Counted from the first letter of the stretch, positions 3,369-58,960 are shown. The stretch: DNA of 64,000 nt from Pyrinomonadaceae bacterium (GCA_965247235.1 OZ252004.1:4132883-4196882), one strand, 5' to 3'. The notes: generated by a model not told the origin, from the letters alone. Numbers and translations: made by a program.

Positions 3369-3472
3369 TGAGGGATGAAGGATGAAGGATGAGGGATGAA
3401 TGGGAAAATTTAAGATTTAAGATTTAAGATTTAAGACTTCTGTCTTTCATTCATCCCTCATCCTTCATCCCT
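3369..3472. repeat. Palindromic element, family A (GGGATGAAG arms) with a 4x TTTAAGAT loop
   Basis: Arm tgatgagggatgaaggatgaaggatgagggatgaatg is matched by cattcatccctcatccttcatccc. Related copies at 33113-33202, 33860-33946, 34395-34503 and 38225-38464. Confidence 0.75.
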
Positions 3473-5706: not shown

Positions 5707-5730
5707 GGGTGAATTCACTATTTAAAAGGC

Positions 5731-5874
5731 AGAAGCCCGCGCGTGAGCAAGGGCGGATAGAATCGCAGAATCTACGCCCAAACAAGATTTGAGTTTATAT
5801 GAGAAATTTCACCTGCAAAATCCGGTTGTAGAAACTGCAATTTTATCCGCCGCTTGCTCAAGCGCGGGCTTCTG
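5731..5874. repeat. Inverted repeat element, family E (about 28-bp GC-rich arms, 85-nt spacer)
   Basis: agaagcccgcgcgtgagcaagggcggata is matched by tatccgccgcttgctcaagcgcgggcttct. Confidence 0.6.
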
Positions 5875-18728: not shown

Positions 18729-20774
18729 TTAGGCTTTAAGACCCGAATCTTTCTTTTCGCGTTTGATGCCGCCGATCTGGACGAGATTGTCGCCCTTGAT
18801 CTGGTTTTTCTCTAAAACCATCTGGTTGTAGAGTTTTTTCATCATCTGCATTTCTTCGGCGGCGGTTTTCGGTCCCTCCATTTCGGGTTTGTTCGGACGC
18901 GAAAGGTCAACTTGATTCAAGTTGAGATTGTGCGTCGCATCGCCGAGTGTAACTTCTTTGCCGCGAGCGAAAACTTCGTGGCGACCGTGTTCTTTATACC
19001 ACTGTGCAACCGTCGCGTTCTGGTGCATATGTTCGATGATATTTCTCCAGCCGATTCCCGTATTGTATGCACAAAAAGAAATTTCGCCTTCCTGTGTGCC
19101 GTAGGGAATGATGCACATTTCGGTGCGGCGGAAATCATAGTTGAACAAATCCTGAAACCACATTCCCGCGATAAACAGGAAGTTCCAAGGGTCTTGACGA
19201 CGTTTTTCGATGTCTTCAGCCGTGCGCGTCCCGTCAACTTTGCCGTAATCTTTGCCAGAAAGTCCGAATGATTTATCAAACTTCTTCAAGATTCCGCCGA
19301 GCGTCAAACTCGTCGGTGCGCCATACGGATTATAGTTTTTCAAGAGAGCCAAGCCCATCATTATATTTGAAAACCACTTGCCGCGATTGGTGTCGGTGAT
19401 GTGTTTCATATCCGTGACCAACCCCTGAATGTTGAGAAATTGCGGCACGGGAGCCATTTCTTTGGTTTCTTTGTTGACCATCACGGCAGTTCCGACACCG
19501 CAATTCGGGTGACAGCCGCAGGAAACTTGTCCCCAATCGGCGTTTTCGCCGTGAACCACGTCCGCGAAATCGGCAAACGCGCCCATCAATGAAAGCGGAA
19601 ACCAATCGCGCGTCGGTTCGGTGATGCCGACCTGTTTCTGCACGTCCTGCGCGAGATGCGAAAGCGTATAACGCTGCTGCAATCTGCGCTGTTCGGTGAT
19701 ATGTTCGTCGCGCCCGGTGAAACTCACGGGTTGGAAGGCGATGAATGAAATTTTCTTCGGATTTTCGAGCGCGAAACGAATAATCGTGCCGACCTGATCG
19801 TTATTAACGCCGTTGACGAGCGTCGTCACCAGGATAATATCAACGCCGGCTTCGTGCAGATTGTTGATCGCTCTTAATTTAACGTCGAACAAATTGCCGA
19901 TCTGTCTGTGCGAGTTCGCGTCGTTGCCGATTCCGTCAAACTGTAAATAAACGAAACGCAAACCTGCTTCGGCGGCTTCGCGGCAAAATTCTTTTGATTT
20001 AGCAAATTCGATTCCGTTAGTCGCCGCCTGCACCGAGTTGTAACCGACTTTACGCGCATAACGAACTGCGTCTAAAAAGTAAGGTGAAAGCGTCGGTTCG
20101 CCGCCCGAATACTGAACGGACATCTGACGGCGCGGTTTGATCTGAATCGCGTTGTCGAGAATTTCCGAAACGTCTTCCATCGAAAGTTCGTGAACGAATC
20201 CGACTTGGTTCGCGTCCATAAAACACGGGTCGCACATCATATTGCAGCGGTTGGTTAAATCAACCGTCAAGACCGCGCCGCGTCCGTATTTAATGGAAGA
20301 AGTCCCGTGATTGTGCAGCTTTTCGTCGTTGTGCGAATCCATATCGCGTCCCGGAAAAAGGTCTTCGATGTGTTTGAGAAACTTGGAATCAATCGCCATC
20401 AAATCTTCAAAATGTCCGTGATCGGGACAATCTTTAATCATCCAGATTTGACCGTCGCGTTCGATGATCTGCGCTTTGATTTCGCCGACTTTTTCGTTAA
20501 TCAAGGTCGCAACCTCGCGTTTGCCGCTTAAAATATCTTCACGCGCTTCGATCACGCAGTTCGGGCAAAGGCTGTCGGTCATACGCGGAAAACCGAGCGT
20601 CGGCTTGGATTTTTCCCACGATTTCAAAATCGGTTTATCAGCCCATTTCGGGGTAAATGACGGGGACGGTTTGTATTGATTGACCGAACGAATCGCATTA
20701 AATGCGCCTTTGGCGGCAACGGTCAATCCTTTTTCTACATATCTAATGGGTCTCATAAAATTAGTTTTCTCCAA
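18729..20774 (-). CDS. Large radical SAM enzyme (681 aa) with N-terminal zinc-ribbon/rubredoxin-like Cys cluster and C-terminal auxiliary Cys cluster. Possibly a tetraether-lipid-synthase (Tes)-like protein
   Basis: CxxxCxxC motif (CNMMCDPC). N-terminal CPNC...CPDH. C-terminal CGCHPNC. The Tes assignment is inference. Confidence 0.6.
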   Translation of the reverse strand: MEKTNFMRPIRYVEKGLTVAAKGAFNAIRSVNQYKPSPSFTPKWADKPILKSWEKSKPTLGFPRMTDSLCPNCVIEAREDILSGKREVATLINEKVGEIKAQIIERDGQIWMIKDCPDHGHFEDLMAIDSKFLKHIEDLFPGRDMDSHNDEKLHNHGTSSIKYGRGAVLTVDLTNRCNMMCDPCFMDANQVGFVHELSMEDVSEILDNAIQIKPRRQMSVQYSGGEPTLSPYFLDAVRYARKVGYNSVQAATNGIEFAKSKEFCREAAEAGLRFVYLQFDGIGNDANSHRQIGNLFDVKLRAINNLHEAGVDIILVTTLVNGVNNDQVGTIIRFALENPKKISFIAFQPVSFTGRDEHITEQRRLQQRYTLSHLAQDVQKQVGITEPTRDWFPLSLMGAFADFADVVHGENADWGQVSCGCHPNCGVGTAVMVNKETKEMAPVPQFLNIQGLVTDMKHITDTNRGKWFSNIMMGLALLKNYNPYGAPTSLTLGGILKKFDKSFGLSGKDYGKVDGTRTAEDIEKRRQDPWNFLFIAGMWFQDLFNYDFRRTEMCIIPYGTQEGEISFCAYNTGIGWRNIIEHMHQNATVAQWYKEHGRHEVFARGKEVTLGDATHNLNLNQVDLSRPNKPEMEGPKTAAEEMQMMKKLYNQMVLEKNQIKGDNLVQIGGIKREKKDSGLKA

Positions 20775-26168: not shown

Positions 26169-26172
26169 GATT

Positions 26173-26310
26173 AGTGGTGAGCGGTGAGTGGTGAGTGGAA
26201 GATTAAATTTGTGGTGAATGGTAAATATCAAACGATGAATGAAATCTGAAATCTGAAATCTGGAATGAGAAATTTTCCACTCACCACTCACCACTCACCG
26301 CTCACCACTA
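26173..26310. repeat. Palindromic element, family F (GTGAGTGGTGAG arms) with 3x AAATCTG in the loop. Its right arm encodes the last residues of the DUF1795 gene
   Basis: agtggtgagcggtgagtggtgagtgga is matched by tccactcaccactcaccactcaccgctcaccact. Confidence 0.7.
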
Positions 26311-26726
26311 ACAAAGAAGTTTTCGACGACTTTGCGGAATGCCTGAATGTGTTTGTTAAAATCTTCGACGGTTGCCGTGCCGGTGATGGCGTAGATGTTT
26401 TGGTTGGAGAGGACGAAGGTTTGAACCTGCTGTAAAAATCCGGCTTCGGTTTGAAAACGGTGAAGCTGCCGGCTCGACGGATAACCGTTGAGCGTGTCAT
26501 TGGCGCGGTCGAGCAGTTCAAAATTCGGCAGGGATTCACGCAGCATTTCGAGTTGTTCGCCGACAAAATCTTCGAGACTTTCGTTAGGTTTAACCGGATG
26601 CCGCGTGATGACAATATTAGCGGCAAAATGAATAGCCTCGTCAAATGGCGCAATTAAAGTCAGCATCGTGCGGTCTTCCCAACTTGCGGGAATTACGGTG
26701 GAAATTTCATTATGTTGCAGTTTCAT
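26295..26726 (-). CDS. DUF1795 (EagR/DcrB-like) family protein
   Basis: 143 aa. Pattern IPASWEDRTML.LIAP...NIVITRHPV..NESLEDFVGEQLEML...LPNFELL is consistent with the DUF1795 fold family, assigned from memory. Confidence 0.5.
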   Translation of the reverse strand: MKLQHNEISTVIPASWEDRTMLTLIAPFDEAIHFAANIVITRHPVKPNESLEDFVGEQLEMLRESLPNFELLDRANDTLNGYPSSRQLHRFQTEAGFLQQVQTFVLSNQNIYAITGTATVEDFNKHIQAFRKVVENFFVSGER

Positions 26727-33859: not shown

Positions 33860-33946
33860 TTATCAGGGATGAAGGGGATGAACAGGGATTTTTAAAACGG
33901 GTGATTTTGGCTTTTTATCGTCTTCAACCTCTTCATCCCTGATAAC
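33860..33946. repeat. Family A palindromic element, left flank of the GxxExxY gene
   Basis: ttatcagggatgaaggggatgaacagggat ... cttcaacctcttcatccctgataa. Confidence 0.65.
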
Positions 33947-34376: not shown

Positions 34377-34394
34377 AGTTTTTCTCCAAAGAGA

Positions 34395-34503
34395 ATTATC
34401 AGGAATGAAGAGGATAAAGAGGATGAAAACAAAAACATTCATTCTTAAATATTTGATTCCTGCCTTTAAAAATCCCTGTCCATCCTCTTCATCCCTGATA
34501 ATT
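34395..34503. repeat. Family A palindromic element, right flank of the GxxExxY gene
   Basis: attatcaggaatgaagaggataaagaggatgaaaac ... ccatcctcttcatccctgataat. Confidence 0.65.
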
Positions 34504-34511
34504 TTCTTTTC

Positions 34512-36884: not shown

Positions 36885-37212
36885 TGATTGAAAACCTCGA
36901 AGAAAAATTTAGTGTAAGTGTAAAGCAAAACGGAGTAAGAGAAAAGATTAAAGAAAATAGGACGCGGACAAACGCGGATTAAGCGGATTTTCGCGGATTG
37001 ATGATGAATTATTTATTGAAATTGCGATAACAAATTGTTTGTCAATCCTGAAAATCAATCGTTTAATTGGGGCTTTTAACTGTCTGCACAAAATTCACGA
37101 AAATCATTTCTTTAATTTGACCGATTAAATATTTTTTCTCAATAAGTTTTTGAAGTCCGCGAAAATCCGCTCAATCCGCGTTCGTCCGCGTCCCATTTCT
37201 TACTTTCCCGAC
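36838..37212. mobile_element. MITE-like element, copy 1 (about 40-bp terminal inverted repeats AATAGGACGCGGACAAACGCGGATTAAGCGGATTTTCGCGG, AT-rich interior)
   Basis: The right end ccgcgaaaatccgctcaatccgcgttcgtccgcgtcccatttcttac is the reverse complement of the left end. A second shorter copy lies at 58786-58960. Confidence 0.65.
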
Positions 37213-37235: not shown

Positions 37236-38216
37236 ATGAACAATCAAACGATCAGCGAATTTATCAAACATAATTTTCGTCATTTCAACGCGGCGGCGTT
37301 GGTGGACGCGGCGGAAGGCTACAAAAAACATCTCGAAACGGGCGGCAAAATGATGATTACGCTTGCCGGCGCGATGTCCACGGCGGAACTCGGTTTGAGT
37401 CTGGCGGAAATGATCCGGCAGGACAAAGTGCAGATTATCACCTGCACGGGCGCGAATCTCGAAGAAGATTTATTTAATCTCGTCGCCCACGATTTTTACG
37501 AACGTGTGCCGCATTACCGCGATCTCACGCCGCAGGACGAACAGGAGTTGCTGTCACGGCATATGAACCGCGTAACCGACACCTGCATTCCCGAAATGGA
37601 AGCGATGCGGCGGTTAGAGAAGGCGATGGTTGATGTTTGGACGAAAGCCGACGCGAATAATGAGCGATATTTTCCGCACGAATTTATGTATCAAATCTTG
37701 AAATCGGGCGTGTTGGAAGAGTTTTATCAGATTGATTTGAAAAATTCGTGGATGTTTGCGGCGATGGAGAAAAATCTGCCGATCATCGTTCCCGGCTGGG
37801 AAGATTCGACGATGGGCAATATGTTCGCCGGACACGTCATCACCGAAGACATCAAAAACGTCCACACCGTCCGCACGGGCATCGAATATATGATGATGCT
37901 CGCCGATTGGTATACGAAAAATGCGACTGACGATTCGACCATCGGATTTTTCCAAATCGGCGGCGGCATCGCGGGCGATTTCCCGATCTGCGTCGTGCCG
38001 ATGCTCCATCAGGATTTGCAACGTGAAAACATTCCCGTCTGGGGTTATTTCTGCCAGATTTCCGATTCGACGACGAGCTACGGCAGCTATTCCGGCGCAG
38101 TTCCGAACGAAAAAATAACTTGGGGCAAATTGGCGGTTGACACGCCGAAATTCATCGTCGAATCCGACGCATCAATCGTCGCGCCGCTGATGTTCGCGTA
38201 TATTTTAGGCTGGTAA
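37236..38216 (+). CDS. Deoxyhypusine synthase family protein
   Basis: 326 aa. Motif ITCTGANLEEDLFNL resembles the DHS (V/I)TTAGG.EED(L/I) region. Confidence 0.65.
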   Translation: MNNQTISEFIKHNFRHFNAAALVDAAEGYKKHLETGGKMMITLAGAMSTAELGLSLAEMIRQDKVQIITCTGANLEEDLFNLVAHDFYERVPHYRDLTPQDEQELLSRHMNRVTDTCIPEMEAMRRLEKAMVDVWTKADANNERYFPHEFMYQILKSGVLEEFYQIDLKNSWMFAAMEKNLPIIVPGWEDSTMGNMFAGHVITEDIKNVHTVRTGIEYMMMLADWYTKNATDDSTIGFFQIGGGIAGDFPICVVPMLHQDLQRENIPVWGYFCQISDSTTSYGSYSGAVPNEKITWGKLAVDTPKFIVESDASIVAPLMFAYILGW

Positions 38217-38224
38217 GAGAAGAG

Positions 38225-38464
38225 AATTGACAGGGATGAAGAGGATAAACAGCGATTTAGGGCAAATGAGGTGTTTTTTTAGTTGATTTGCCAACAACCT
38301 TTTGTTTTACTTTGCGCCTTTGCGGGAAACATTCTTTCAAATAAAAAGAAATTTCCCGCAAAGGCGCAAAGTAAGACATAAGTAAAGATAAAATTTATGA
38401 AGCGGTGATTTACAAAATCATTTTTCGATTTTTCATCCCTGCTTATCCTCTTCATCCCTGTTAA
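38225..38464. repeat. Nested palindromes: outer family A arms enclosing an inner perfect family D inverted repeat
   Basis: Outer arms attgacagggatgaagaggataaacag ... catccctgcttatcctcttcatccctgttaat. Inner tactttgcgcctttgcgggaaa ... tttcccgcaaaggcgcaaagta. Confidence 0.7.
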
Positions 38465-38479
38465 TTCGTCCTGATATTT

Positions 38480-39448
38480 ATGAGTAAATACATCGTGACC
38501 GGCGGCGCGGGATTTATCGGCAGTGCGCTTTGTTGGAGATTAAATGAGCTTGGCGAAACGGATATTTTAATCGTTGACCGGCTTGATTCAACCGACAAAT
38601 GGAAGAATCTCGCGCCGCTCGAATTCGCCGATTATATTGATGCCGATGATTTTATCGGAAGTCTGAAAAAGTTTGACGGTGCAAAGGTTTTACTGCATCT
38701 CGGCGCGTGTTCGGCGACGACCGAGCGCGATGCTGATTTTATGATGCGGAACAACTACGAGTTTACGAAAACGCTCGCGCATTGGTCGGTCGAAAATAAC
38801 ATTCGCTTCATCTACGCATCGAGCGCGGCAACTTACGGCGACGGCGCAAACGGGATGAACGACGGTGCGGACGAACTAGAAAATCTGCGCCCGCTCAATG
38901 TTTACGGGTATTCCAAACATTTATTCGATAAATACGCGCACCGCAACGGATTATTTGAAAGCATCGTCGGACTGAAATATTTCAATGTCTTCGGACCAAA
39001 CGAAAATCATAAAGGCGAGATGCGTTCGCTGGTCAACAAAGCGTTCACGCAGATTCGGGAAACCGGCGCATTGCAGCTTTTTAAAAGCGCGAATCCAGAT
39101 TACAAAGACGGCGAATTCGGACGCGATTTCGTTTACGTTAAAGATGTCGTCGAGATGACGCTGCATTTTCTCGAAAATCCGGCAAGCGGTTTATTCAACA
39201 TCGGTTCAGGCGAAACGCACACCTGGAACGAACTGGCAAAAGCGATTTTCGCCGCGCTCGAACTCGAACCGAACATCGAATACGTCGAGATGCCTGAACA
39301 CCTGCGCGACCGCTACCAATATCATACGCAAGCCGACATTTCGCGGATTCGCCAAACAGATTATGATAAAAAAATGACGAATCTGCCCGAAGCCGTCGCC
39401 GACTATGTGAGAAATTATTTGATTCCCGGTAAATTTTTGGGTGATTAG
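38480..39448 (+). CDS. hldD: ADP-L-glycero-D-manno-heptose-6-epimerase
   Basis: KYIVTGGAGFIGS...DILIVDRL Rossmann N-terminus, YGYSK catalytic motif, HldD-like C-terminus (YQYHTQADISRIR). Confidence 0.85.
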   Translation: MSKYIVTGGAGFIGSALCWRLNELGETDILIVDRLDSTDKWKNLAPLEFADYIDADDFIGSLKKFDGAKVLLHLGACSATTERDADFMMRNNYEFTKTLAHWSVENNIRFIYASSAATYGDGANGMNDGADELENLRPLNVYGYSKHLFDKYAHRNGLFESIVGLKYFNVFGPNENHKGEMRSLVNKAFTQIRETGALQLFKSANPDYKDGEFGRDFVYVKDVVEMTLHFLENPASGLFNIGSGETHTWNELAKAIFAALELEPNIEYVEMPEHLRDRYQYHTQADISRIRQTDYDKKMTNLPEAVADYVRNYLIPGKFLGD

Positions 39449-40374: not shown

Positions 40375-41187
40375 TTGAATTTTATATTTCCAAAAACCGG
40401 AGATCATCAAGACCCGAACTGGCGCGGGAAGGTTTTTCTGTGGCAGGAACAGGCGTTGTTTCTCGGTGCGGCGGCGCAGACGAGTCTGCACGCTTCACCG
40501 GCGATTAAGATTTGCATCGGTTTGGACGGCGAATTCGGTTTGCGGACGGCGGCGGACGGCGAATGGCAAAATTACAAGTCGGCGATTATCGCGCCCGGAC
40601 AAAATCACGCGATTGACGGGCGGCAGAAACGGCTTGCGCTGATCGTTCTCGTGCCGGAAGCCCGCGCCGCGCAGCCTTTGATTCCGATTTTGGCGCGGAA
40701 AGGCGTGTCGAGAATTCCGGTTGCGGTCGTGCAGAATTTTCTGCCGATTTTCGAGCGTTTTGAAGAAGCGAGCCGCGTCACCGTTGAGAGCGAAAAAATC
40801 TGCCGACGAATGCTCAAAAGCATCAAAAACGGCGACGAACTGTTGAGCGCGGCGATTGATTCGCGTGTTTCCCAAAGCATCGAATGGCTTCGCGCCGAAC
40901 CGGAAAATCACGTTTCCGTCGGTGAAATCGCCGCCAGCGTGCAGCTTTCCGAAAGCCGTTTTTCACACCTTTTCACCGCCGAAGTCGGCGTTTCCGTGAG
41001 CCGTTATCTGCTCTGGCTACGCCTGCGGAACGCCATTCATCTGCTCGCCAAAGGCAGTTCATTAACCGACACAGCCTACGAAGCCGGTTTCGCCGATTCC
41101 GCTCATCTCACCCGAACCTTCCGCCAATGTTTAGGCATCGCGCCGTCGTCGCTGATTAAACACAGTTCGCTCATTTCGTTTAATTAG
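40375..41187 (+). CDS. AraC-family transcriptional regulator (cupin-like N-domain plus AraC HTH)
   Basis: C-terminal AraC HTH (VGEIAASVQLSESRFSHLFTAEVGVSVSRYLLWLRLRNAIHLL...AGFADSAHLTRTFRQCLGIAPSS). Confidence 0.75.
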   Translation: MNFIFPKTGDHQDPNWRGKVFLWQEQALFLGAAAQTSLHASPAIKICIGLDGEFGLRTAADGEWQNYKSAIIAPGQNHAIDGRQKRLALIVLVPEARAAQPLIPILARKGVSRIPVAVVQNFLPIFERFEEASRVTVESEKICRRMLKSIKNGDELLSAAIDSRVSQSIEWLRAEPENHVSVGEIAASVQLSESRFSHLFTAEVGVSVSRYLLWLRLRNAIHLLAKGSSLTDTAYEAGFADSAHLTRTFRQCLGIAPSSLIKHSSLISFN

Positions 41188-41281
41188 CCGGAACGCAGGC
41201 TGTTTGGTAGCAGAATCGTTCAAGCATTCCGTTTTGGAGATGTGCATAATCAACATAGAAATCCATCCCGAAGTATCAAAA

Positions 41282-43054
41282 ATGACAGATAAACGAAATT
41301 TAATTTATCCCGAACCGCTGAAAATTACGGCGGACGAAACGGAAAGTTTTCAGAATTGGGGCTTTGCCGATACGCAGTTTGCGATTAAAAAAAACGGCAA
41401 CGTGACGATTCTCGGTGACAGGTATGAACTGAGCGGACAGGAATTGCCGCGACTGCTGCCGTGGATTCGGGAAACGCTCGGCATTGCGCTCGATCCGCAG
41501 GACATTCATCGGAATTCGTATCCGACGCAGATTCCCGAACCGCTTGCCGCGCCCGAATTTACGGCGGAAATCGTTAAATTTCTCGCCGCAAATCAGCTCG
41601 ACACCGGCGGCGAAAACCGTCTGCGGCACGGACACGGACACACGCAGGAAGAAATGTTTGCGATCAAACATTTTCAAATCAAGCGCATTCCCGATCTGAT
41701 CGTCTATCCTGACAACGAAATGCAGGTTGCCGAACTGATTAAAGCCGCGAAACGTCACAACGTCGCGCTGATCCCGTTCGGCGGCGGCACGAACGTAACC
41801 GACGCGCTGCGCTGTGCGGAGAACGAAACGCGCCTGATCGTCTCGGTTGATATGCGGCGGATGAACCGCGTTCTGTGGATTGATAAAGAAAATATGATGG
41901 CTTGCATCGAAGCGGGCGCGGTCGGTCGGCACATTATGACGCAGCTTGAAAAATACGGCGTGATGATGGGACACGAACCCGACAGCGTAGAATTTTCGAC
42001 GCTCGGCGGTTGGATTGCGACCAACGCGAGCGGGATGAAAAAGAACAAATACGGCAACATCGAAGACATCGTAATTGATGTCAGCGTGGCGACGGCTGAC
42101 GGTAAACTCGAACGCAAATCAGCCGCGCCGCGCGAATCGGTCGGCTCGGATTTGCGCCGTCTGATTTTCGGTTCGGAAGGCTCGCTCGGCATTATTACGT
42201 CGGCAATCGTCAAACTTTTCCCGCTGCCCGAAGCGCAGATTTACGGCTCGGTTTTGTTCCCGTCGTTTGAAGACGGTTACGAATTTATGAAGGAGTTGAC
42301 CTTGACCGCCGCGCCGCCCGCGTCCGTTCGTCTGATTGATAATATGCAGTTTCAGTTCGGTCTGGCGTTAAAACCCGCGTCGCAGGGATTCAAGGTTTTA
42401 AAGAGCAATATCGAAAAGTTTTTCGTCACCAAAATTAAAGGTTTCAAACCCGAAGAAATGGTCGCCTGCACCTTGGTTTTTGAAGGCACGCGCATTGAAA
42501 CCGACGCGCATCAAAAGGAAATTTACCGTATCGCCGAAAAACACAAAGGAATGAAAGCAGGCGGCGAAAACGGTCGGCGCGGTTATCAATTGACCTACAG
42601 CATCGCCTATATCCGCGATTTTTTGATGAATCATTACATCATCGCCGAATCGTTTGAAACGTCGTGCGCGTGGTCTGACGCGCTGAAAATCTGCGAAAAC
42701 GTCAAGGCGCGTTTGAACGAAGAATTCAAAAAACGCGGCTTGCCCGGAAAGCCTTTTATCACATCGAGAATCACGCAGGTTTACCGCACGGGCGTGGCGA
42801 TTTATTTTTATTTCGGTTTTTATTACAAAGGCATTCCGAATCCGTCGAAACTCTACGTCGAACTCGAAAACATCGCCCGCGCAGAGATTTTAAATTGCGG
42901 CGGTTCGCTTTCGCATCATCACGGCATCGGCAAAATTCGTCAGGCGTTTCTGCCCGAAATTATGTCGGAAACCGCGATCAAGTGGAAACAGGAAATCAAA
43001 CACGGTCTCGACCCCGAAAATATTTTCGGCGCGGCAAATCAGGGTTTGAAATGA
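41282..43054 (+). CDS. FAD-linked oxidase, alkyl-dihydroxyacetonephosphate synthase (AGPS)-like
   Basis: FAD-binding PCMH domain (ALIPFGGGTNVTDAL..RLIVSVDMRRMNRVLWIDKENMMACIEAGAVG). C-terminal ..LSHHHGIGK... Start at MTDKR (41282). Confidence 0.7.
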   Translation: MTDKRNLIYPEPLKITADETESFQNWGFADTQFAIKKNGNVTILGDRYELSGQELPRLLPWIRETLGIALDPQDIHRNSYPTQIPEPLAAPEFTAEIVKFLAANQLDTGGENRLRHGHGHTQEEMFAIKHFQIKRIPDLIVYPDNEMQVAELIKAAKRHNVALIPFGGGTNVTDALRCAENETRLIVSVDMRRMNRVLWIDKENMMACIEAGAVGRHIMTQLEKYGVMMGHEPDSVEFSTLGGWIATNASGMKKNKYGNIEDIVIDVSVATADGKLERKSAAPRESVGSDLRRLIFGSEGSLGIITSAIVKLFPLPEAQIYGSVLFPSFEDGYEFMKELTLTAAPPASVRLIDNMQFQFGLALKPASQGFKVLKSNIEKFFVTKIKGFKPEEMVACTLVFEGTRIETDAHQKEIYRIAEKHKGMKAGGENGRRGYQLTYSIAYIRDFLMNHYIIAESFETSCAWSDALKICENVKARLNEEFKKRGLPGKPFITSRITQVYRTGVAIYFYFGFYYKGIPNPSKLYVELENIARAEILNCGGSLSHHHGIGKIRQAFLPEIMSETAIKWKQEIKHGLDPENIFGAANQGLK

Positions 43055-43950
43055 TAAATATCAACAAAACACTGCGTTTCGGCAGACGTAAACTGCACGG
43101 AAATATTCGCCGCGCCGAAAAATTGATTCGCGTCATTCAAGGTTCGAGTGTCAAAAGAGGTGTGCAGGAACCACCGATCTGGCAGATTGAAAAAACGCGG
43201 TTTCAGGCGAATGTCTGCCGCATTTTGCTGATGCCGTTCGGCGGGCTTTTAATTTTGATGATGAAGTATGTTCGCGGCTACCGCCTCGAAAATATGCGCG
43301 AAATCCGCGAACAATTCCAAAAAATCTGGCAGGAAAAACAACGCACGAACACGCCGCTCGTGATCTGCGCCAATCATCTGACGTTTATTGATTCGGCTCT
43401 GATGATCTGGGCGTTGGCATCGAATTTTTGGTATCTGTTTAATTACAAAGCATTTATGTGGAATCTGCCCGCCGGAGATTTTTTCAAGAAAAAACTGCAT
43501 TATCACCTGACGCTCTACCTGACGAAGTGTATTTTTCTCGACCGCAAAGGAACGCCCGCGCACAAAAACGCAATTTTGAATATGTGCCGTTATCTGCTCG
43601 AAAAAGGCAATATCGTTTTAATTTTCCCCGAAGGTCAGCGCAGCCGCACGGGAATTTTTGACAACGAACGTCTGCATTTCGGAGTCGGCAAAATCATCAC
43701 TTCGCTCGAAAACGCGCAGGTTTTGTGCGTTTATCTGCGCGGCGACAAGCAGGAAGGCTTTTCCAATTATCCGCCGAAAAATTCGTCTTTTAACGTCAAA
43801 ATGAAAGTTATCAAACCGGACGCGGGCGAACTTTCCAAAAAACGCGCGAGCATCGAAGTCGTCAAACAAATCGGCGCGGCGATTAAAAATTTGGAAAACG
43901 AATATTTCGCGGAAAGCACGACTGGAGCGCAATCGGCTCGCTTGCAATAA
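43051..43950 (+). CDS. PlsC-family acyltransferase (GPAT/DHAPAT-like), translationally coupled to the AGPS-like gene
   Basis: HxxxxD motif (CANHLTFIDSALM) and FPEGQRS motif. The ATG overlaps the upstream TGA (ATGA). Confidence 0.65.
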   Translation: MININKTLRFGRRKLHGNIRRAEKLIRVIQGSSVKRGVQEPPIWQIEKTRFQANVCRILLMPFGGLLILMMKYVRGYRLENMREIREQFQKIWQEKQRTNTPLVICANHLTFIDSALMIWALASNFWYLFNYKAFMWNLPAGDFFKKKLHYHLTLYLTKCIFLDRKGTPAHKNAILNMCRYLLEKGNIVLIFPEGQRSRTGIFDNERLHFGVGKIITSLENAQVLCVYLRGDKQEGFSNYPPKNSSFNVKMKVIKPDAGELSKKRASIEVVKQIGAAIKNLENEYFAESTTGAQSARLQ

Positions 43951-44065
43951 GCGCGAAAGCGCGAGAACGAAGCACAGTTTATGCAAAGTTGAGTTAATTT
44001 AACGCTTCGTTTGCCTTTTGCAAAGGCATTGCAAGCGAGCCGCTTGCGCTCCAGTCGGATAATAA

Positions 44066-44842
44066 ATGAACAAAAAGGTCATTATCACAGGCGCGTCTTC
44101 GGGAATCGGCAAAGCATTGGCGTTTGAATTTGCGCGAAACGGTTTCGACCTTTATTTAACGGCGCGAAATGAAACCGCACTGCGCGAAATCGCTCAGGAA
44201 TGCGAACGAAAATTCAACATAAAAACCGAAATTTTTACTGCCGATTTATCCGACTTAACGACGATTGATGAATTAGTCAAACAGTTAGAAAATCGAAATT
44301 TCGATGTGCTGGTCAACAACGCGGGCTTTGCCGTCAAAGGCGATTTCGCCGAAACGGACATTGACGACGAACTGAAAATGCTCAATGTCCAACTTGCCGC
44401 GATGCTCAAATTAACGAAAGCCGTTTTGCCGAAAATGATCGCCGCCAAAAGCGGTAAAATCTTAAATGTCGCGTCGGTTTATTCGTTTGCGCCAGTCCCG
44501 AAACAGGCGGTTTACAGCGCGTCGAAAGCCTTTATCGCCAATTTTTCTTCCGCTCTGCAAGCCGAAGTCGCAGCTTCGGGAATTACCGTGACGCTGCTCT
44601 GTCCCGGCATTACCCAAACCGAATTTCGCACCCGCGCGGGCATTGCCGATAAAAAAAACGCCGGAATGACCGCCGCAAAAGTCGCCGAAATCGGTTTCCG
44701 CGAAACGATGCGCGGCACACATCTGGTCGTGCCGGGAACTCAAAACAAAATTTTTACTGCCGCCGCCAAACACATTCCGGCACAGATTTTTACATCGTTC
44801 GTCAGGTTTATCAATAATCGTCGCGGTGTTAACGGGAAATAA
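44066..44842 (+). CDS. Short-chain dehydrogenase/reductase (SDR), candidate acyl/alkyl-DHAP reductase
   Basis: TGASSGIGKALA cofactor motif, NNAG, YSASKAF catalytic Tyr-Lys. Confidence 0.8.
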   Translation: MNKKVIITGASSGIGKALAFEFARNGFDLYLTARNETALREIAQECERKFNIKTEIFTADLSDLTTIDELVKQLENRNFDVLVNNAGFAVKGDFAETDIDDELKMLNVQLAAMLKLTKAVLPKMIAAKSGKILNVASVYSFAPVPKQAVYSASKAFIANFSSALQAEVAASGITVTLLCPGITQTEFRTRAGIADKKNAGMTAAKVAEIGFRETMRGTHLVVPGTQNKIFTAAAKHIPAQIFTSFVRFINNRRGVNGK

Positions 44843-44853
44843 TTATTCACTTT

Positions 44854-45432
44854 ATGCACACCTTGGCTTTATTTTTTCTGCTTTTTTGTTCGCCGTCGGC
44901 TTTGATGGATTTTGCACTGCCGCAATGGGCGCAGGACGCAAATTTTCAGATTGAAGACGCTTATAAATGGATTTTTCAGGCGACGCGCGGCGGCGAACAC
45001 GCCGCGCCGAGCCGCGAAATGGCGCGTGAATATTTAAATGAAGAATGGCAAACGCTCGCCAAACCGTCGGCGGGCGAAGCGTTATGGCAGCCGCTCTGCG
45101 CTGACGGCGAAATCGGCAGGCTGAATCTCCGCCCGTTTCGCGCTCGCGGCGGAAACGCTGAAAAAGCGGCGGACGCATTCGTCAAAAGCAGTCTGGATTT
45201 TCAAGGCACGGAAAAAGATTTTCTCGCCGCGTGGCGCGAACTCGGCAAACGTCTGCGAAAAAAACGGCAGGGAAATCTCAGTTATAAAACCTGGCGACAT
45301 CTCGATTCGACAATGCGAAAACAAAAATATCCGGCGATTCATCACAGCAAAATCTACGAAGATTCCGAACATCCGGCGTATCGAATTCTCACCAAAGCGG
45401 AATTTGAAAAACTCTCCGCCGCGCTCAAATAA
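44854..45432 (+). CDS. Hypothetical secreted protein
   Basis: 192 aa. N-terminal hydrophobic signal-like segment MHTLALFFLLFCSPSALM. Confidence 0.4.
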   Translation: MHTLALFFLLFCSPSALMDFALPQWAQDANFQIEDAYKWIFQATRGGEHAAPSREMAREYLNEEWQTLAKPSAGEALWQPLCADGEIGRLNLRPFRARGGNAEKAADAFVKSSLDFQGTEKDFLAAWRELGKRLRKKRQGNLSYKTWRHLDSTMRKQKYPAIHHSKIYEDSEHPAYRILTKAEFEKLSAALK

Positions 45433-45572: not shown

Positions 45573-47924
45573 ATGGCTTTGAATCCATTTTTAGAGAAAT
45601 TTCGCCCGTATATTCCCGACGCAGTGACGAATATGCGCGAGTTGAGCGTTTTTCCGTTGATTGTCGGCACATTGCTCGGCATCGTTTTCGGCGCGTCGTC
45701 GCTGTATCTCGTGTTGAAAACCGGCTTGACCGTTTCGGCTTCGATTCCGGTCGCCGTGATTTCGATTACGCTCTTTCGACTGCTTTCAAAATTCGGTGCA
45801 AAGGACGCGACGATTCTGGAAAATAACATCGTCCAAACTGCCGGAAGCGCAGGCGAATCAATCGCGTTCGGGGTCGGCGTGACGATGCCCGCGATTATGA
45901 TTTTGGGATTCGATCTCGAATTCTGGCGCGTGATGCTCGTCGCGGTTTTGGGCGGACTTTTGGGGATTTTGATGATGATTCCGCTGCGCCGCGCCTTGAT
46001 TAAAGACCAGCACGGGATTTTGAAATACCCGGAAGGCACAGCCTGCGCTGAAGTTTTGAAGGCGGGCGCGTCGTCTGAATCTCGCGCCGTTGCCAACGAA
46101 TACGCCGACGTTAAAGTTTCCGAAACCGACGATTCGGCGTTGCAGGGCGGCAAAATTATCTCCATCGGCTTTCTCATCGGATTCGTTTACAACTCGCTGA
46201 TGCAGGTTTTTTCGTTTTGGAAGGACACGCCGGAAAAAGAATTTTCCGATTCGACGCTCAAAGGCGGTTCGATTTCGCTCGAAAACAATCCGGCTTTGCT
46301 CGGTGTCGGCTACATTATCGGTCCGTATATCGCCGGAATTATGATGGCTGGCGGCGTGCTGTCGTATATGGTTTTGATTCCGCTGATTAAATATTTCGGC
46401 GCGGGGTTAGCCGTGCCGCTTGCGCCGGAACTGGCGCGGACGATTGATTCGATGTCGCCCGGGCAGATTCGCGGCGCGTATATTTTGTATATCGGCGCGG
46501 GCGCGGTGGCGATGGGCGGAATGATTTCGCTCGCCAAATCGCTGCCGACGATCTGGCACGGTTTGAAGGGCGGAATTGCGGACTTACGCGGCGGCGGTGC
46601 GGAAGCCGACGGTTCGCATCTGCCGCGCACCGATCAGGATATTTCGATGAAATGGGTGGTCGTCGGCGTGTTGGGATTGATCGCCGCGATTATGCTTTTC
46701 CCGCAATTGGGTTTGAGCGTTTTTGCCAATCCGGTCGTCTCGTTTTTAGGCGCGATTCTGATTATCATTCTCGGCTTTTTGTTCGTCACCGTTTCGTCGC
46801 GTCTGACAGGCGAAGTCGGTTCGTCGTCGAATCCGATTTCGGGAATGACGGTTGCTACTTTGTTGATTACCTGTCTGGTTTTCTGGCTCTTGGGCTGGAC
46901 GAAACCCGATCCTTATTTCGTCACCGCGCTGAGTATCGGCGGCATCGTCTGTATCGCCGCATCAAACGGCGGCACGACTTCGCAGGATTTGAAAACGGGA
47001 TTTCTCGTCGGTTCGACTCCGCGCCGCCAGCAAATCGCCATTCTCGTCGGCGCACTCGGTTCGGCACTCGTTTTAGGTCCGCTGCTGATCTTTTTGAACA
47101 GTTCGCAGACGTATTATCAGAAGGTTGACCCGACTTCGCCGCTTGCCACTTATCAAGTCAGCGAACAGCAGCTTTTTCGCCAAAACGGACAGTTGCAGGC
47201 TGAACAGGTCGGCGGCAAATTCAAAACCGAAGACACCGCAACCTATCGCGTCTGGCAGAATACCGATCCGAAAGAAGGACAAATCGGCAAATATCTCGTC
47301 AATAATCAGGGGCAAGTCGTTTATTTCGTTGATCCGGGCATCAACGGCGTGATTAAAAAAGACGAAAACGGCAACGATCTGACGCGCTACGATGCGCCGA
47401 AAGCGACCTTGATGAGCTACATTATCAAAGGCGTTTTGGGGCAGAATCTGCCGTGGGGATTAGTCTTGATCGGCGCGATGATCGCCGTCGTGCTGGAACT
47501 TTCCGGTGCGCCCGCGCTCGCGTTTGCGGTCGGTTTGTATCTGCCGATTTCCACGTCCGCGCCGATTTTCGTCGGCGGTCTGGTGCGTTATTTCGTGGAT
47601 ATTTATCTTAAACGCAAACTCGCCAAACGCAATCTGACCGAAGACGAAGTGATCGCCGAAACGGATAAATCGAACGGCGTTCTGCTCGCCTCAGGCTACA
47701 TTGCAGGCGGCGCGATTGCGGGAATTTTGGTGGCGGTTTTCGCCGTCATTCCCGCGCTTGCCAATTTGCAGGATAGTTTCAAGAAATGGGCTGACACCGG
47801 CAATCCGTTTTTCAAAGGCGATTATTCCGACGTTCTCGGCACGATTCCGTTTATGATTCTGGCGTTGATTCTTTACTACGTCGGACGCGAATTGCTGCTC
47901 GCGGGTAAAAATAAAGTTGGGTGA
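45573..47924 (+). CDS. OPT-family oligopeptide transporter
   Basis: 783 aa polytopic protein. OPT signature (NIVQTAGSAGESIAFGVGVTMPAIMILGF). Confidence 0.8.
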   Translation: MALNPFLEKFRPYIPDAVTNMRELSVFPLIVGTLLGIVFGASSLYLVLKTGLTVSASIPVAVISITLFRLLSKFGAKDATILENNIVQTAGSAGESIAFGVGVTMPAIMILGFDLEFWRVMLVAVLGGLLGILMMIPLRRALIKDQHGILKYPEGTACAEVLKAGASSESRAVANEYADVKVSETDDSALQGGKIISIGFLIGFVYNSLMQVFSFWKDTPEKEFSDSTLKGGSISLENNPALLGVGYIIGPYIAGIMMAGGVLSYMVLIPLIKYFGAGLAVPLAPELARTIDSMSPGQIRGAYILYIGAGAVAMGGMISLAKSLPTIWHGLKGGIADLRGGGAEADGSHLPRTDQDISMKWVVVGVLGLIAAIMLFPQLGLSVFANPVVSFLGAILIIILGFLFVTVSSRLTGEVGSSSNPISGMTVATLLITCLVFWLLGWTKPDPYFVTALSIGGIVCIAASNGGTTSQDLKTGFLVGSTPRRQQIAILVGALGSALVLGPLLIFLNSSQTYYQKVDPTSPLATYQVSEQQLFRQNGQLQAEQVGGKFKTEDTATYRVWQNTDPKEGQIGKYLVNNQGQVVYFVDPGINGVIKKDENGNDLTRYDAPKATLMSYIIKGVLGQNLPWGLVLIGAMIAVVLELSGAPALAFAVGLYLPISTSAPIFVGGLVRYFVDIYLKRKLAKRNLTEDEVIAETDKSNGVLLASGYIAGGAIAGILVAVFAVIPALANLQDSFKKWADTGNPFFKGDYSDVLGTIPFMILALILYYVGRELLLAGKNKVG

Positions 47925-52743: not shown

Positions 52744-53052
52744 AACACGGATTTGGCGGATTTGGCGAATTTACCGGAATTGAAAAAAACTGTGAAAATC
52801 TGCTTAACCCGTAAAATCCGTGTTCCGTTTTTATAAGTATGAAAAACTCTTAAAAATCATTCAGCGATTTGAAGTTCGATAAAAACAAACTCACTTTTGT
52901 TGAAAACTGACGAATTAGATAGAATTGGACAAATCTGATGATTTATCTCCCTCAAAAGTTTATTATCGAATTAATCAGACATAATTCGACTAAAATATGA
53001 CTGCAAAAACCGGGATGTTATCAAACTCAACTTCCGAAAATCTGATTTTTTA

Positions 53053-58785: not shown

Positions 58786-58960
58786 AATTTCCCGCCAAGG
58801 CGCAAAGCCGCAAAATAAAGCAAACGGCGCAGGGAACAAAGAAATAGGACGCGAATGAACACGGATTAGGCTGATTTTCGCCGATTTTTAAAGAATTATA
58901 ACAGCGGCAATCCGCTCGATCCGCGTTCGTCCGCGTCCCATTTCTTACTTCTCACTAAAG
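58786..58960. mobile_element. MITE-like element copy 2 (shorter, more diverged TIRs)
   Basis: cccgccaaggcgcaaag...aaataggacgcgaatgaacacggattaggctgattttcgccgatt ... aatccgctcgatccgcgttcgtccgcgtcccatttcttac. Confidence 0.6.

Follow-up and report, generated by a model that had tools for sequence, protein, structure and literature searches.

A conserved AGPS, acyltransferase and short-chain dehydrogenase gene cassette of Blastocatellia proposed to function in sn-1 alkyl ether lipid synthesis

Here, we describe a compact gene cassette in a 64,000-nucleotide stretch of DNA from a Pyrinomonadaceae bacterium (hereafter, the window) that is likely to represent the form taken in Blastocatellia (Acidobacteriota subdivision 4) by an aerobic route to sn-1 alkyl ether glycerolipids dependent on alkyl-dihydroxyacetonephosphate synthase (AGPS, EC 2.5.1.26), and that is probably the route by which these aerobic bacteria make abundant sn-1 ether lipids. 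AGPS is a flavoenzyme that trades the acyl group of 1-acyl-dihydroxyacetone phosphate (1-acyl-DHAP) for a fatty alcohol and, through this exchange, forms an ether bond, which is placed at sn-1 only. The unit appears to be organized as an AraC-family regulator, AGPS, an acyltransferase, a short-chain dehydrogenase/reductase (SDR), and a conserved protein of 192 amino acids (aa). Under the proposed mechanism, the membrane-anchored acyltransferase would turn DHAP into 1-acyl-DHAP; AGPS would then replace this acyl group with a fatty alcohol, long-chain and probably iso-branched, that must be provided by a reductase encoded elsewhere, yielding 1-O-alkyl-DHAP; and the SDR, of the NADPH type, would reduce the C2 ketone to give 1-O-alkyl-sn-glycerol-3-phosphate (1-O-alkyl-G3P), which would enter ordinary phospholipid synthesis.

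Ether-bond formation in aerobic Acidobacteria is a standing question, and these bacteria are suspected sources of brGDGTs, the palaeotemperature and pH proxies. To our knowledge, alkyl-DHAP reduction is a step without an assigned bacterial enzyme, and the SDR is a concrete candidate for it. The ester reductase Ger is known only from anaerobes and facultative anaerobes, and the roles of elb and agps in Acidobacteria are considered "not conclusively demonstrated" (PMC11868695, PMC13159169); homologues of agps were already reported in subdivision 4 (bioRxiv 10.64898/2026.06.23.733905; PMC11868695). The compact, conserved and regulated gene set defined here, with its dedicated acyltransferase and dedicated SDR, provides a handle on the AGPS route.

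Organization and conservation of the cassette

Three co-oriented ORFs occupy positions 41282-44842 of the window. The AGPS gene (41282..43054, + strand; 590 aa from an ATG start) shares a 4-nt ATGA stop/start overlap (43051-43054) with the acyltransferase gene (43051..43950, + strand; 299 aa, with a hydrophobic N-terminal helix), and the SDR gene (44066..44842, + strand; 258 aa) follows after a gap that measures 115 nt (43951-44065), not 112 nt as first given. Directly upstream lies a gene for an AraC-family transcriptional regulator (40375..41187, + strand; Pfam HTH_18 2.2e-19, HTH_AraC 8e-14; the TTG start is uncertain), and 11 nt past the SDR gene begins that of the 192-aa protein (44854..45432, + strand), which has a hydrophobic N-terminus. 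Apart from the gap length, the original prediction had the layout of the three genes right, as well as the AraC regulator and the ATGA overlap, and it was also correct in suspecting an acidobacterium as the source, a soil-dwelling member of Blastocatellia. A longer AGPS product from a TTG start at 41204 is possible; relatives of this protein are 587-591 aa long.

The AraC, AGPS and acyltransferase genes occur together in 39/39 Blastocatellia-type loci, and the SDR gene is present in 17 of these 39; about 22 related loci, mostly from one derived clade, have no SDR in the cassette. Conservation of the three-gene order in other bacteria, which had been suggested as a check, was found in the form of AGPS-acyltransferase-SDR in 13 Blastocatellia loci. 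Terriglobia and a Handelsmanbacteria MAG have AGPS-SDR pairs that lack the acyltransferase, the two genes overlapping by 4 nt in some of them, and thus neither partner is obligatorily linked. In most relatives, the AGPS and acyltransferase genes overlap or are separated by <=9 nt, and the majority of loci have an acyltransferase-SDR junction of between -14 and +61 nt. All Blastocatellia-type loci examined have an AraC homologue directly 5' of AGPS, and no such homologue is present in the Terriglobia-type or myxobacterial-type loci of the AGPS-first scan; the AraC protein is likely to be the dedicated regulator of the cassette, which suggests conditional expression.

Family assignment of AGPS

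By family, the product of the first gene is a genuine AGPS, from which the corresponding enzymatic activity is predicted. The protein has the two-domain architecture of AGPS, with FAD_binding_4 (PF01565, 8.3e-37) at residues 137-278 and FAD-oxidase_C (PF02913, 2.2e-36) at residues 315-583, and matches guinea-pig AGPS (4bby) over residues 19-586 (E 4.6e-167, 560 bits), with 44.7% identity across 566 columns, as well as Dictyostelium AGPS (2uuu; E 1.4e-96). Non-AGPS families, such as D-lactate dehydrogenase and glycolate oxidase, reach only ~1e-29, the best of these matches, to D-lactate dehydrogenase (1.2e-29), being confined to the FAD domain, and the scores against GlcD models are far under their cut-offs, so that identity as a D-lactate or glycolate oxidase can be ruled out and the predicted AGPS family membership stands. 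The catalytic residues checked are all kept: H615-H617 (the HHH loop), Y578 and R419 of the guinea-pig enzyme correspond to H545-H547, Y508 and R350 of the window protein, and the residues aligned with T309, R515, S527, R566 and T568 of the guinea-pig enzyme are likewise conserved.

Acyltransferase family and predicted substrate

The second protein is an acyltransferase of the expected HxxxxD/FPEGxRS type: it contains the motifs NHLTFID (residues 108-114) and FPEGQRSR (192-199), along with CIFLDR, on an acyltransferase fold, and matches Pfam Acyltransferase (PF01553) at 1.8e-14. As judged by sequence comparison, it represents a separate and very small family (98 clusters at E<=1e-30 in a search of 1.84 billion representatives) of the same fold, and is neither a canonical PlsC nor a homologue of GNPAT. 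With bacterial PlsC it shares this fold and the HxxxxD and EGxRS catalytic blocks, and public annotations name its relatives "lysophospholipid acyltransferase family protein" or "1-acyl-sn-glycerol-3-phosphate acyltransferase"; assignment as a canonical PlsC (LPA acyltransferase) is backed neither by the curated family threshold nor by similarity to solved PlsC. The best hhalign score was obtained with E. coli PlsC (42.2, probability 78%), followed by E. coli PlsB (41.2, probability 55%). Comparison with the GNPAT-like protein of locus L035, in which a fatty acyl reductase (FAR) is fused to an acyltransferase (FAR-AT), was not significant in BLASTP and gave a score of 30.8 (probability 8%) in hhalign. 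A GNPAT/PlsB-type identity was rejected because of this lack of significant similarity to a GNPAT-type domain and the absence of the GPAT-type block motifs tested (HRSxxD[YF]; AFF/AFYxRR; F[FV]xEGxRSRS); the FAR-AT proteins of L034, L035 and L039 carry HRSY[LM]DF, AFY[LV]RR/AFFIRR and FFIEG[AT]RSRS. Identity as a canonical PlsC, which would have spoken against the parallel with GNPAT drawn for this gene, is not borne out, but BLASTP and hhalign give the protein no specific relation to GNPAT-type domains.

The motifs of the window protein (NHxxxxD, xIFxDR, FPEGxRS) are nearer the AGPAT type and, with no GNPAT-specific similarity, the choice between DHAP and another substrate is left to inference. 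We propose that the protein is a DHAP acyltransferase, the alternative being a 1-alkyl-G3P sn-2 acyltransferase. In the latter case, to which we assign a real but clearly smaller probability, the pathway would be the same, with the acyltransferase acting after the reductase as a dedicated AGPAT-like sn-2 enzyme that converts 1-O-alkyl-G3P to 1-alkyl-2-acyl-G3P, and with acyl-DHAP coming from another enzyme. The AGPAT/PlsC-type motifs and the top hhalign score are consistent with such a role; the acyltransferase-SDR fusions described below would then unite two consecutive steps; and Terriglobia retain AGPS-SDR without this acyltransferase, so that acyl-DHAP is apparently available from elsewhere. 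For the DHAP acyltransferase that we prefer, the translational coupling of the AGPS and acyltransferase genes in the cassette agrees with the finding that GNPAT and AGPS work as a complex (PMC9131029).

The SDR and its link to AGPS

The third gene encodes, as predicted, a classical SDR (adh_short 4.2e-51), with TGASSGIG at residues 8-15, NNAG at 84-87, S136 in NVASV, and Y150 and K154 in YSASK (150-154); the match to PF01370 (2.6e-6) is secondary. An arginine (Arg34) follows strand 2, and the enzyme is probably NADPH-dependent. Its matches in PDB are generic SDRs, and its best curated family match is also generic (mycolate reductase model, 191 bits vs a cut-off of 380). We propose the SDR as a candidate 1-O-alkyl-DHAP (and acyl-DHAP) reductase that would produce 1-O-alkyl-sn-glycerol-3-phosphate, a role suggested by the linkage and fusion of the genes and by the logic of the pathway.

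Homologues of the SDR (51-69% identity) follow AGPS and the acyltransferase in the 13 Blastocatellia loci and come right after AGPS in 5 Terriglobia/Handelsmanbacteria loci. The SDR thus adjoins AGPS in 18 loci of the AGPS-first scan, and it does so in 5/5 look-ups that started from the SDR, which establishes the association, the activity being a separate matter; reverse look-ups of acyltransferase homologues found AGPS adjoining in 2/2 cases. Two lineages encode acyltransferase-SDR fusion proteins (P0361 and P0378) that are independent of each other and align with the SDR over its full length, at 49% and 39% identity. One of the fusions is clustered, in locus L062, with a FAR (PF07993, 3e-60), AGPS, the gene of which is overlapped by the FAR gene by 4 nt, and a desaturase of PF10520 (2e-57), the family to which PEDS1/CarF belong.

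It is improbable that the SDR, and possibly also the 192-aa protein, is a mere neighbour of an AraC-AGPS-acyltransferase unit, with the ketone reduced by an unrelated enzyme. The ~22 loci without a cassette SDR, the generic curated match and the -83 kcal/mol hairpin that precedes the SDR gene, hairpins of this kind being typically located after gene ends in this genome, could be read this way, but AGPS and the SDR are neighbours in three types of cassette and in two or more phyla, their stop and start codons often overlapping, the fusion proteins contain full-length homologous SDR halves, and the hairpin is a lineage-specific insertion because the closest relative (L001) has a junction of just 2 nt. 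Our preferred reading, accordingly, keeps the SDR within the cassette.

Comparison with known ether-lipid systems

The eukaryotic peroxisomal ether-lipid pathway comprises FAR1, GNPAT, AGPS and DHRS7B/PexRAP, with PEDS1 acting later. The cassette resembles this pathway in its clear AGPS homologue with conserved catalytic residues, in having a short-chain dehydrogenase family protein in the reductase slot, and in the order of the chemistry (acylation, alkyl exchange, ketone reduction), and differs from it in lacking a FAR, in an acyltransferase that is not of the GNPAT/PlsB type, in the arrangement of the genes as an operon with a transcriptional regulator, and in the absence of PEDS1 from the window. 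AGPS requires a long-chain fatty alcohol, and no FAR was found in the cassette or among the window ORFs scanned; the cassette is therefore not self-contained, and its description as a "complete" or "minimal self-contained pathway" has to be withdrawn. The broader claim of resemblance survives in part, carried by the true AGPS, the AGPS-linked SDR and the matching order of steps, but weakened by the missing FAR and by an acyltransferase unlike GNPAT. Together, the identity of AGPS, its linkage with the SDR, the acyltransferase-SDR fusions and the FAR/AGPS/desaturase cluster lend good support to an ether-lipid function. The eukaryotic alkyl-DHAP reductases DHRS7B and DHRS7 belong to the short-chain dehydrogenase family (PMC13200781, PMC7517302).

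A three-gene AGPS operon, MXAN_1676-1674, was already described in M. xanthus (PMC9131029). The two systems share three co-oriented genes, with an AGPS homologue first, then an acyltransferase, then a Rossmann-fold NAD(P) protein, and a presumed pathway logic (PMC9131029, PMC13012113). However, the second gene of the M. xanthus operon is a FAR-acyltransferase fusion, whereas the window acyltransferase contains PF01553 only, with no PF07993, and has no significant similarity to the GNPAT-like domain; the third window gene is a classical SDR (PF00106) rather than an extended epimerase-type SDR; and the window cassette adds the AraC regulator and the 192-aa protein, with no FAR nearby. The acyltransferase and the reductase are other members of the same superfamilies in the slots of the myxobacterial operon, not orthologues of its GNPAT-type and epimerase-type proteins. 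The M. xanthus architecture recurs in loci L034, L035 and L039, with AGPS, a FAR-AT protein of ~895 aa and an epimerase-like protein of ~355 aa. In bacteria, AGPS is joined with at least three sets of partners, namely, FAR-GNPAT plus an epimerase, the SDR alone, and the acyltransferase plus SDR, a variety that bears on recent arguments about an origin of the plasmalogen pathway of eukaryotes in bacteria (PMC13012113).

The elbABCDE/ElbD system of myxobacteria likewise has alkyl ether glycerolipids of aerobes as its proposed product and joins reductase and acyltransferase functions (PMC9131029; PMC13159169), and elb clusters are reported in subdivision 4 Acidobacteria too. ElbD differs from the cassette in that its adenylation, ACP, reductase and acyltransferase domains form one large enzyme without an AGPS step, and nothing comparable to it was found in the window; that ElbD might supply the missing fatty alcohol is speculation on our part. 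The AGPS route is a minor contributor to ether lipids in M. xanthus compared with ElbD (PMC9131029) and, given the elb clusters of subdivision 4, the principal origin of the ether lipids may lie outside the cassette. The lipids of subdivision 4 fit an AGPS route with its sn-1-only ether: glycerol monoethers (iso-C15 and iso-C17 MGE, iso-diabolic acid glycerol ether) are abundant in cultures, which contain no brGDGTs (PMC13274423), and these bacteria lack the anaerobic ester reductase Ger (PMC13159169).

A more far-reaching scenario, which we offer tentatively and consider less likely than not, is that the acyltransferase and SDR were independently recruited for the first and third steps as non-orthologous replacements of GNPAT and PexRAP, in the form of a two-gene or fused module; that the SDR is the first identified bacterial alkyl-DHAP reductase; that the cassette, rather than ElbD or Ger, is the main sn-1 ether route (to monoalkyl and iso-diabolic-acid glycerol ethers) in aerobic subdivision 4; and that the tetraether-synthase homologue 20 kb away couples membrane-spanning chains. 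The latter is the radical SAM enzyme at 18.7-20.8 kb, which had been connected with ether or membrane-spanning lipids, and its identity as a tetraether-synthase homologue is in keeping with this. If this scenario is true, the cassette and the tetraether-synthase homologue would together provide, in defined genes, an aerobic route leading towards brGDGT-like lipids.

That the cassette makes no ether lipids, with the AGPS-like flavoenzyme catalysing another reaction and the acyltransferase and SDR serving in other lipid modification, is very unlikely: although bacterial members of this AGPS clade are without biochemical characterization and the function of acidobacterial agps homologues has "not been conclusively demonstrated" (PMC11868695), the protein is 45% identical over its full length to a structurally and mechanistically defined AGPS and retains all catalytic residues tested (among them Arg419, the catalytic Tyr and the HHH loop), the related L062 cluster contains a FAR and a PEDS1-family desaturase, and deletion of the M. 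xanthus homologue lowers ether lipids (PMC9131029, PMC13012113).

The intergenic hairpin and the 192-aa protein

The acyltransferase/SDR junction contains a 139-nt hairpin element (43919..44057, no strand assigned), with 30-nt arms (43919-43948 and 44028-44057) that are 97% complementary and a predicted MFE of -83.4 kcal/mol (z = -10.3); the left arm extends over the final codons of the acyltransferase gene and its stop. An imperfect ~12-bp palindrome without a terminator had been described here; the palindrome is in fact this much longer hairpin, but the absence of a canonical terminator is upheld, given that no U-tract follows the hairpin and a consensus scan of the + strand of the gap returned no terminator-like site. 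The hairpin has no Rfam match, and neither the rest of the window nor loci L001-L058 contain another copy. The only other loci with long acyltransferase-SDR gaps, L020 and L022, each have an unrelated long hairpin there. Comparable hairpins are numerous within the window, and the genome has many such long hairpins after stop codons, this one among them. The element may serve to mark the 3' end of an mRNA, stabilize the transcript or attenuate read-through and, inserted where it is, may partly uncouple transcription of the acyltransferase and SDR genes.

The 192-aa protein is a possible fourth member of the cassette. It has no match in Pfam, NCBIfam or PDB, and its single-sequence structure model, with a pLDDT of 43, is too poor to be of use. 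Its homologues (43-59% identity) are encoded 3' of the cassette in 21/23 loci and just upstream in the other two; in L052 and L053, the gene overlaps the SDR gene by 4 nt. Among the invariant residues of this family are E48-H49, H164 and P174-A-Y-R177.

The AGPS-acyltransferase-SDR cassette

Five ORFs between positions 40375 and 45432 share one orientation: an AraC-type regulator (40375–41187, + strand; Pfam HTH_18), a 590-aa FAD-linked oxidase of the alkyl-DHAP synthase (AGPS) family (41282–43054, +; FAD_binding_4 and FAD-oxidase_C), a 299-aa acyltransferase (43051–43950, +; Acyltransferase), a 258-aa SDR (44066–44842, +; adh_short), and a 192-aa protein without a known domain (44854–45432, +). 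The Pfam assignments of the oxidase, acyltransferase, SDR, and regulator are unambiguous. The original prediction, of a co-oriented AGPS-family oxidase, an HxxxxD/FPEGxRS acyltransferase, and a classical SDR, with an AraC regulator upstream and an ATGA stop/start overlap, was borne out by the ORFs and their domains, by the motifs NHLTFID and FPEGQRSR in the acyltransferase and TGASSGIG and YSASK in the SDR, and by the overlap of the oxidase stop with the acyltransferase start at 43051–43054. The gene arrangement is operon-like. For the 192-aa protein, profile searches against PDB and Pfam produced no match, and a single-sequence structure model reached a pLDDT of 43.

In a search of all PDB sequences, the flavoenzyme matched guinea-pig AGPS over its full length (E = 4.6e-167) and Dictyostelium AGPS (1.4e-96), whereas D-lactate dehydrogenase, glycolate oxidase, and D-2-hydroxyglutarate dehydrogenase were matched through the FAD domain only (1e-29 to 1e-17). 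With E-values about 140 orders of magnitude apart, identification as a D-lactate or glycolate oxidase was rejected, and the family membership originally proposed stands. The flavoenzyme is 44.7% identical to its mammalian counterpart over 566 columns and retains Arg419, the catalytic tyrosine, the HHH loop, and five other active-site residues. Homologues with 73–84% identity, labeled alkyldihydroxyacetonephosphate synthase in JGI, are found in Blastocatellia and Pyrinomonadaceae MAGs, which places the source organism among the subdivision 4 acidobacteria, in line with the original suggestion of an acidobacterium. Family membership and the intact catalytic residues together indicate that the protein is a true AGPS.

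Comparative genomics of AGPS loci

An AGPS-first scan of species-representative genomes yielded 49 loci, among which three cassette types were delineated by mapping of the window proteins, inspection of neighbors, and a neighbor-joining tree without bootstrap. The myxobacterial type, present in Myxococcales, other “Deltaproteobacteria,” and Gemmatimonadaceae, consists of AGPS followed by a ~895-aa fusion of a fatty acyl reductase (FAR) with a GNPAT-like domain and a ~355-aa epimerase-type protein, the published arrangement of M. xanthus MXAN_1676-1675-1674 (PMC9131029). In the Terriglobia type (Terriglobia and one Handelsmanbacteria MAG), the gene right after AGPS encodes an SDR homologous to that of the window (51–58% identity), and the acyltransferase is missing. 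The Blastocatellia type comprises AraC, AGPS, and the acyltransferase, with the SDR next in 17 of 39 loci; some 22 loci of this type, mostly from one derived clade, have no SDR gene and carry the 192-aa protein gene directly next. The AGPS-acyltransferase junction is an overlap or at most 9 nt in most loci, and the acyltransferase-SDR junction spans −14 to +61 nt, likewise in most. In reciprocal look-ups, all five SDR homologues (59–63% identity) and both acyltransferase homologues adjoined AGPS.

The surroundings of the cassette vary. A deoxyhypusine-synthase-like (homospermidine-synthase-like) gene and an ADP-glyceromanno-heptose 6-epimerase gene (37236–39448) are retained just upstream of AraC across Blastocatellia (L052–L054, L059, and L060 among the loci). 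On the 3' side, many relatives carry ribF (FAD synthetase/riboflavin kinase) and a UbiB-type kinase, in place of which the window has an OPT oligopeptide transporter (45573–47924). In two Terriglobia-type loci (L055:10925–12798 and L057:2962–3573), a PlsY gene (PF02660) lies a few kb from AGPS, and in L055 it adjoins a 930-aa AMP-binding/PP-binding/acyltransferase protein that is Aas- or ElbD-like; PlsY and the 930-aa protein are possible alternative suppliers of acyl-DHAP or alcohol.

The linkage of both the acyltransferase and the SDR families to AGPS is conserved, and the two are fused in two lineages. These gene fusions, the strongest of the comparative evidence, were seen in two cluster representatives, P0361 (537 aa) and P0378 (503 aa). 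Their SDR halves match the full length of the window SDR, with 49% and 39% identity, respectively. A metagenome scan with the fusion recovered one contig already known and generic SDRs, and nothing else. P0361 is encoded in L062:1–13614, a Logan SRR13867568 contig (GC 42%), where a FAR gene (PF07993, 3e-60) overlaps by 4 nt a divergent AGPS that shows 34% identity to the window enzyme and likewise to the guinea-pig enzyme. A PF10520 lipid desaturase (2e-57), of the family to which PEDS1/CarF/TMEM189 and plant FAD4 belong, is divergently adjacent, and methyltransferase and histidine kinase genes are also present. With the reductase and all four activities that mark aerobic plasmalogen synthesis, L062 is apparently a complete aerobic ether-lipid or plasmalogen cluster, and its sole acyltransferase slot is filled by the family of the window acyltransferase.

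A small family of AGPS-linked acyltransferases

The acyltransferase scored 36.7 bits against the PlsC-domain model, under the cut-off of 102.95, and matched no PDB sequence at E ≤ 0.1. Profile comparison with hhalign gave scores too similar to tell the candidates apart for E. coli PlsC (42), E. coli PlsB (41), and the myxobacterial FAR-GNPAT-like protein (31), and a Foldseek search against PDB returned a single weak acyltransferase match, GPAT1 (E = 1.9e-3), with noise below it. A profile built from 26 family members and searched against 1.84 billion cluster representatives matched 382 proteins at E ≤ 1e-3, of which 98 reached E ≤ 1e-30. On these results, the acyltransferase belongs to a small, self-contained family that is neither PlsC nor GNPAT, and ordinary PlsC lies beyond the reach of the profile. 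Identification as a canonical PlsC was rejected on the PlsC score, the lack of a PDB match, and the narrow profile, and homology to GNPAT is unsupported in comparison with the myxobacterial-type FAR-acyltransferase proteins and E. coli PlsB. The more distant members P0485, P0488, and P0456 (E about 1e-23 to 1e-31) carry a fused 4'-phosphopantetheinyl transferase (ACPS) domain, a hint that the family at large operates alongside lipid pathways that depend on carrier proteins.

Proposed pathway

Under the proposed scheme, the acyltransferase would produce 1-acyl-DHAP, AGPS would exchange the acyl chain for a fatty alcohol, and the SDR would reduce the resulting 1-O-alkyl-DHAP to 1-O-alkyl-G3P; by SDR cofactor signatures, Arg34 after strand 2 of the SDR presumably reflects NADPH use. 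We lean toward the acyltransferase acting at the first step, DHAP acylation, because no housekeeping DHAP acyltransferase is known in bacteria, the pairing of GNPAT with AGPS provides a precedent, and the gene is coupled to AGPS. The chief alternative, which we regard as possible but less probable, is action at the last step, on the sn-2 position of 1-alkyl-G3P, a role compatible with both the AGPAT-like motifs of the acyltransferase and its fusion to the SDR; the rest of the probability falls to other roles. The cassette had further been predicted to constitute a self-contained pathway, and this part did not hold, because AGPS requires a fatty alcohol and no FAR gene was found among the window ORFs scanned, nor any PEDS1/CarF-like or ElbD-like gene.

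Relation to acidobacterial membrane lipids

Subdivision 4 Acidobacteria cultures are without Ger (PMC13159169), and agps and elb homologues are reported from some subdivision 4 genomes without a demonstrated role (bioRxiv 10.64898/2026.06.23.733905; PMC11868695). The AGPS route, sn-1-specific and oxygen-compatible, fits a lipidome in which monoethers dominate, but it is a minor contributor next to ElbD in M. xanthus (PMC9131029). The large radical SAM enzyme encoded at 18729–20774 (− strand; Radical_SAM and Zn_ribbon_HMPTM), also connected to membrane-spanning lipids in the original prediction, matches PDB 7tol over residues 97–572 (E = 8.8e-63), which identifies it as homologous to GDGT-MAS/Tes, the tetraether synthase of archaea. 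The enzyme may catalyze the tail-to-tail coupling that yields membrane-spanning iso-diabolic acid lipids; Tes homologues have been reported from only 3 of 14 acidobacterial genomes from iso-diabolic-acid producers (PMC13159169).

AGPS is already known from bacteria, a three-gene operon containing it has been described, and agps has been recorded in subdivision 4 Acidobacteria. No description of the AGPS-acyltransferase-SDR cassette was found in the searchable literature, and the neighborhood is possibly covered in Sinninghe Damste et al. 2018. As far as that literature shows, the new elements are the small AGPS-linked acyltransferase family without FAR, a family of classical SDRs encoded after AGPS across Acidobacteriota, the fusions between these two families, and the conservation of the AraC regulator and the 192-aa protein. 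This set of partners is directly testable and of use to those specializing in the ether lipids of bacteria or the sources of brGDGTs.

An intergenic hairpin and other inverted repeats

The gap between the acyltransferase and SDR genes had been described as 112 nt with an imperfect ~12-bp palindrome and no terminator. The last point stands, with no U-tract 3' of the hairpin and no terminator-like site in a + strand consensus scan of the gap, but the gap measures 115 nt and contains the right two-thirds of a 139-nt hairpin with 30-nt, 97% complementary arms (43919–43948 and 44028–44057; −83.4 kcal/mol, z = −10.3). Counts from promoter and terminator consensus scans did not exceed those of shuffled controls. 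The acyltransferase gene takes its final ten codons and its stop from the left arm, and the encoded C-terminus is longer than in relatives. The hairpin matches no Rfam family, and neither the window nor loci L001–L058 contain another copy of it; the same junction is 2 nt in L001, the closest relative, and comparably long gaps occur only in L020 and L022, both with long hairpins unrelated to the window element. We read the hairpin as a REP- or MITE-like element whose insertion is probably lineage-specific and which may terminate, attenuate, or stabilize the transcript.

The window contains many long intergenic inverted repeats (arms of 22–43 nt) directly 3' of stop codons, for example at 1664–1824, 3371–3472, 5730–5874, 26171–26311, 33860–33945, 34388–34509, 36955–37198, 38219–38467, 52744–52824, and 58847–58938, which resemble REP or MITE elements, or terminators without a U-tract. 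Some form sequence families: GGACGCGGACRAACGCGGATT was found four times, with a related hairpin in L022, from another Blastocatellia genome, and GGGATGAAGAGGATAA-like arms occur at 3371, 33860, 34388, and 38224. Three near-palindromic hairpins of the form CCCCTCCTT...AAGGAGGGG (8580–8663, 9070–9172, and 10409–10470) all lie inside the ORF at 8053–11841 (− strand), which encodes a 1261-aa type ISP restriction-modification-like protein with a DUF559 endonuclease-like domain, an unusual location for repeated hairpins given that it is a coding region.
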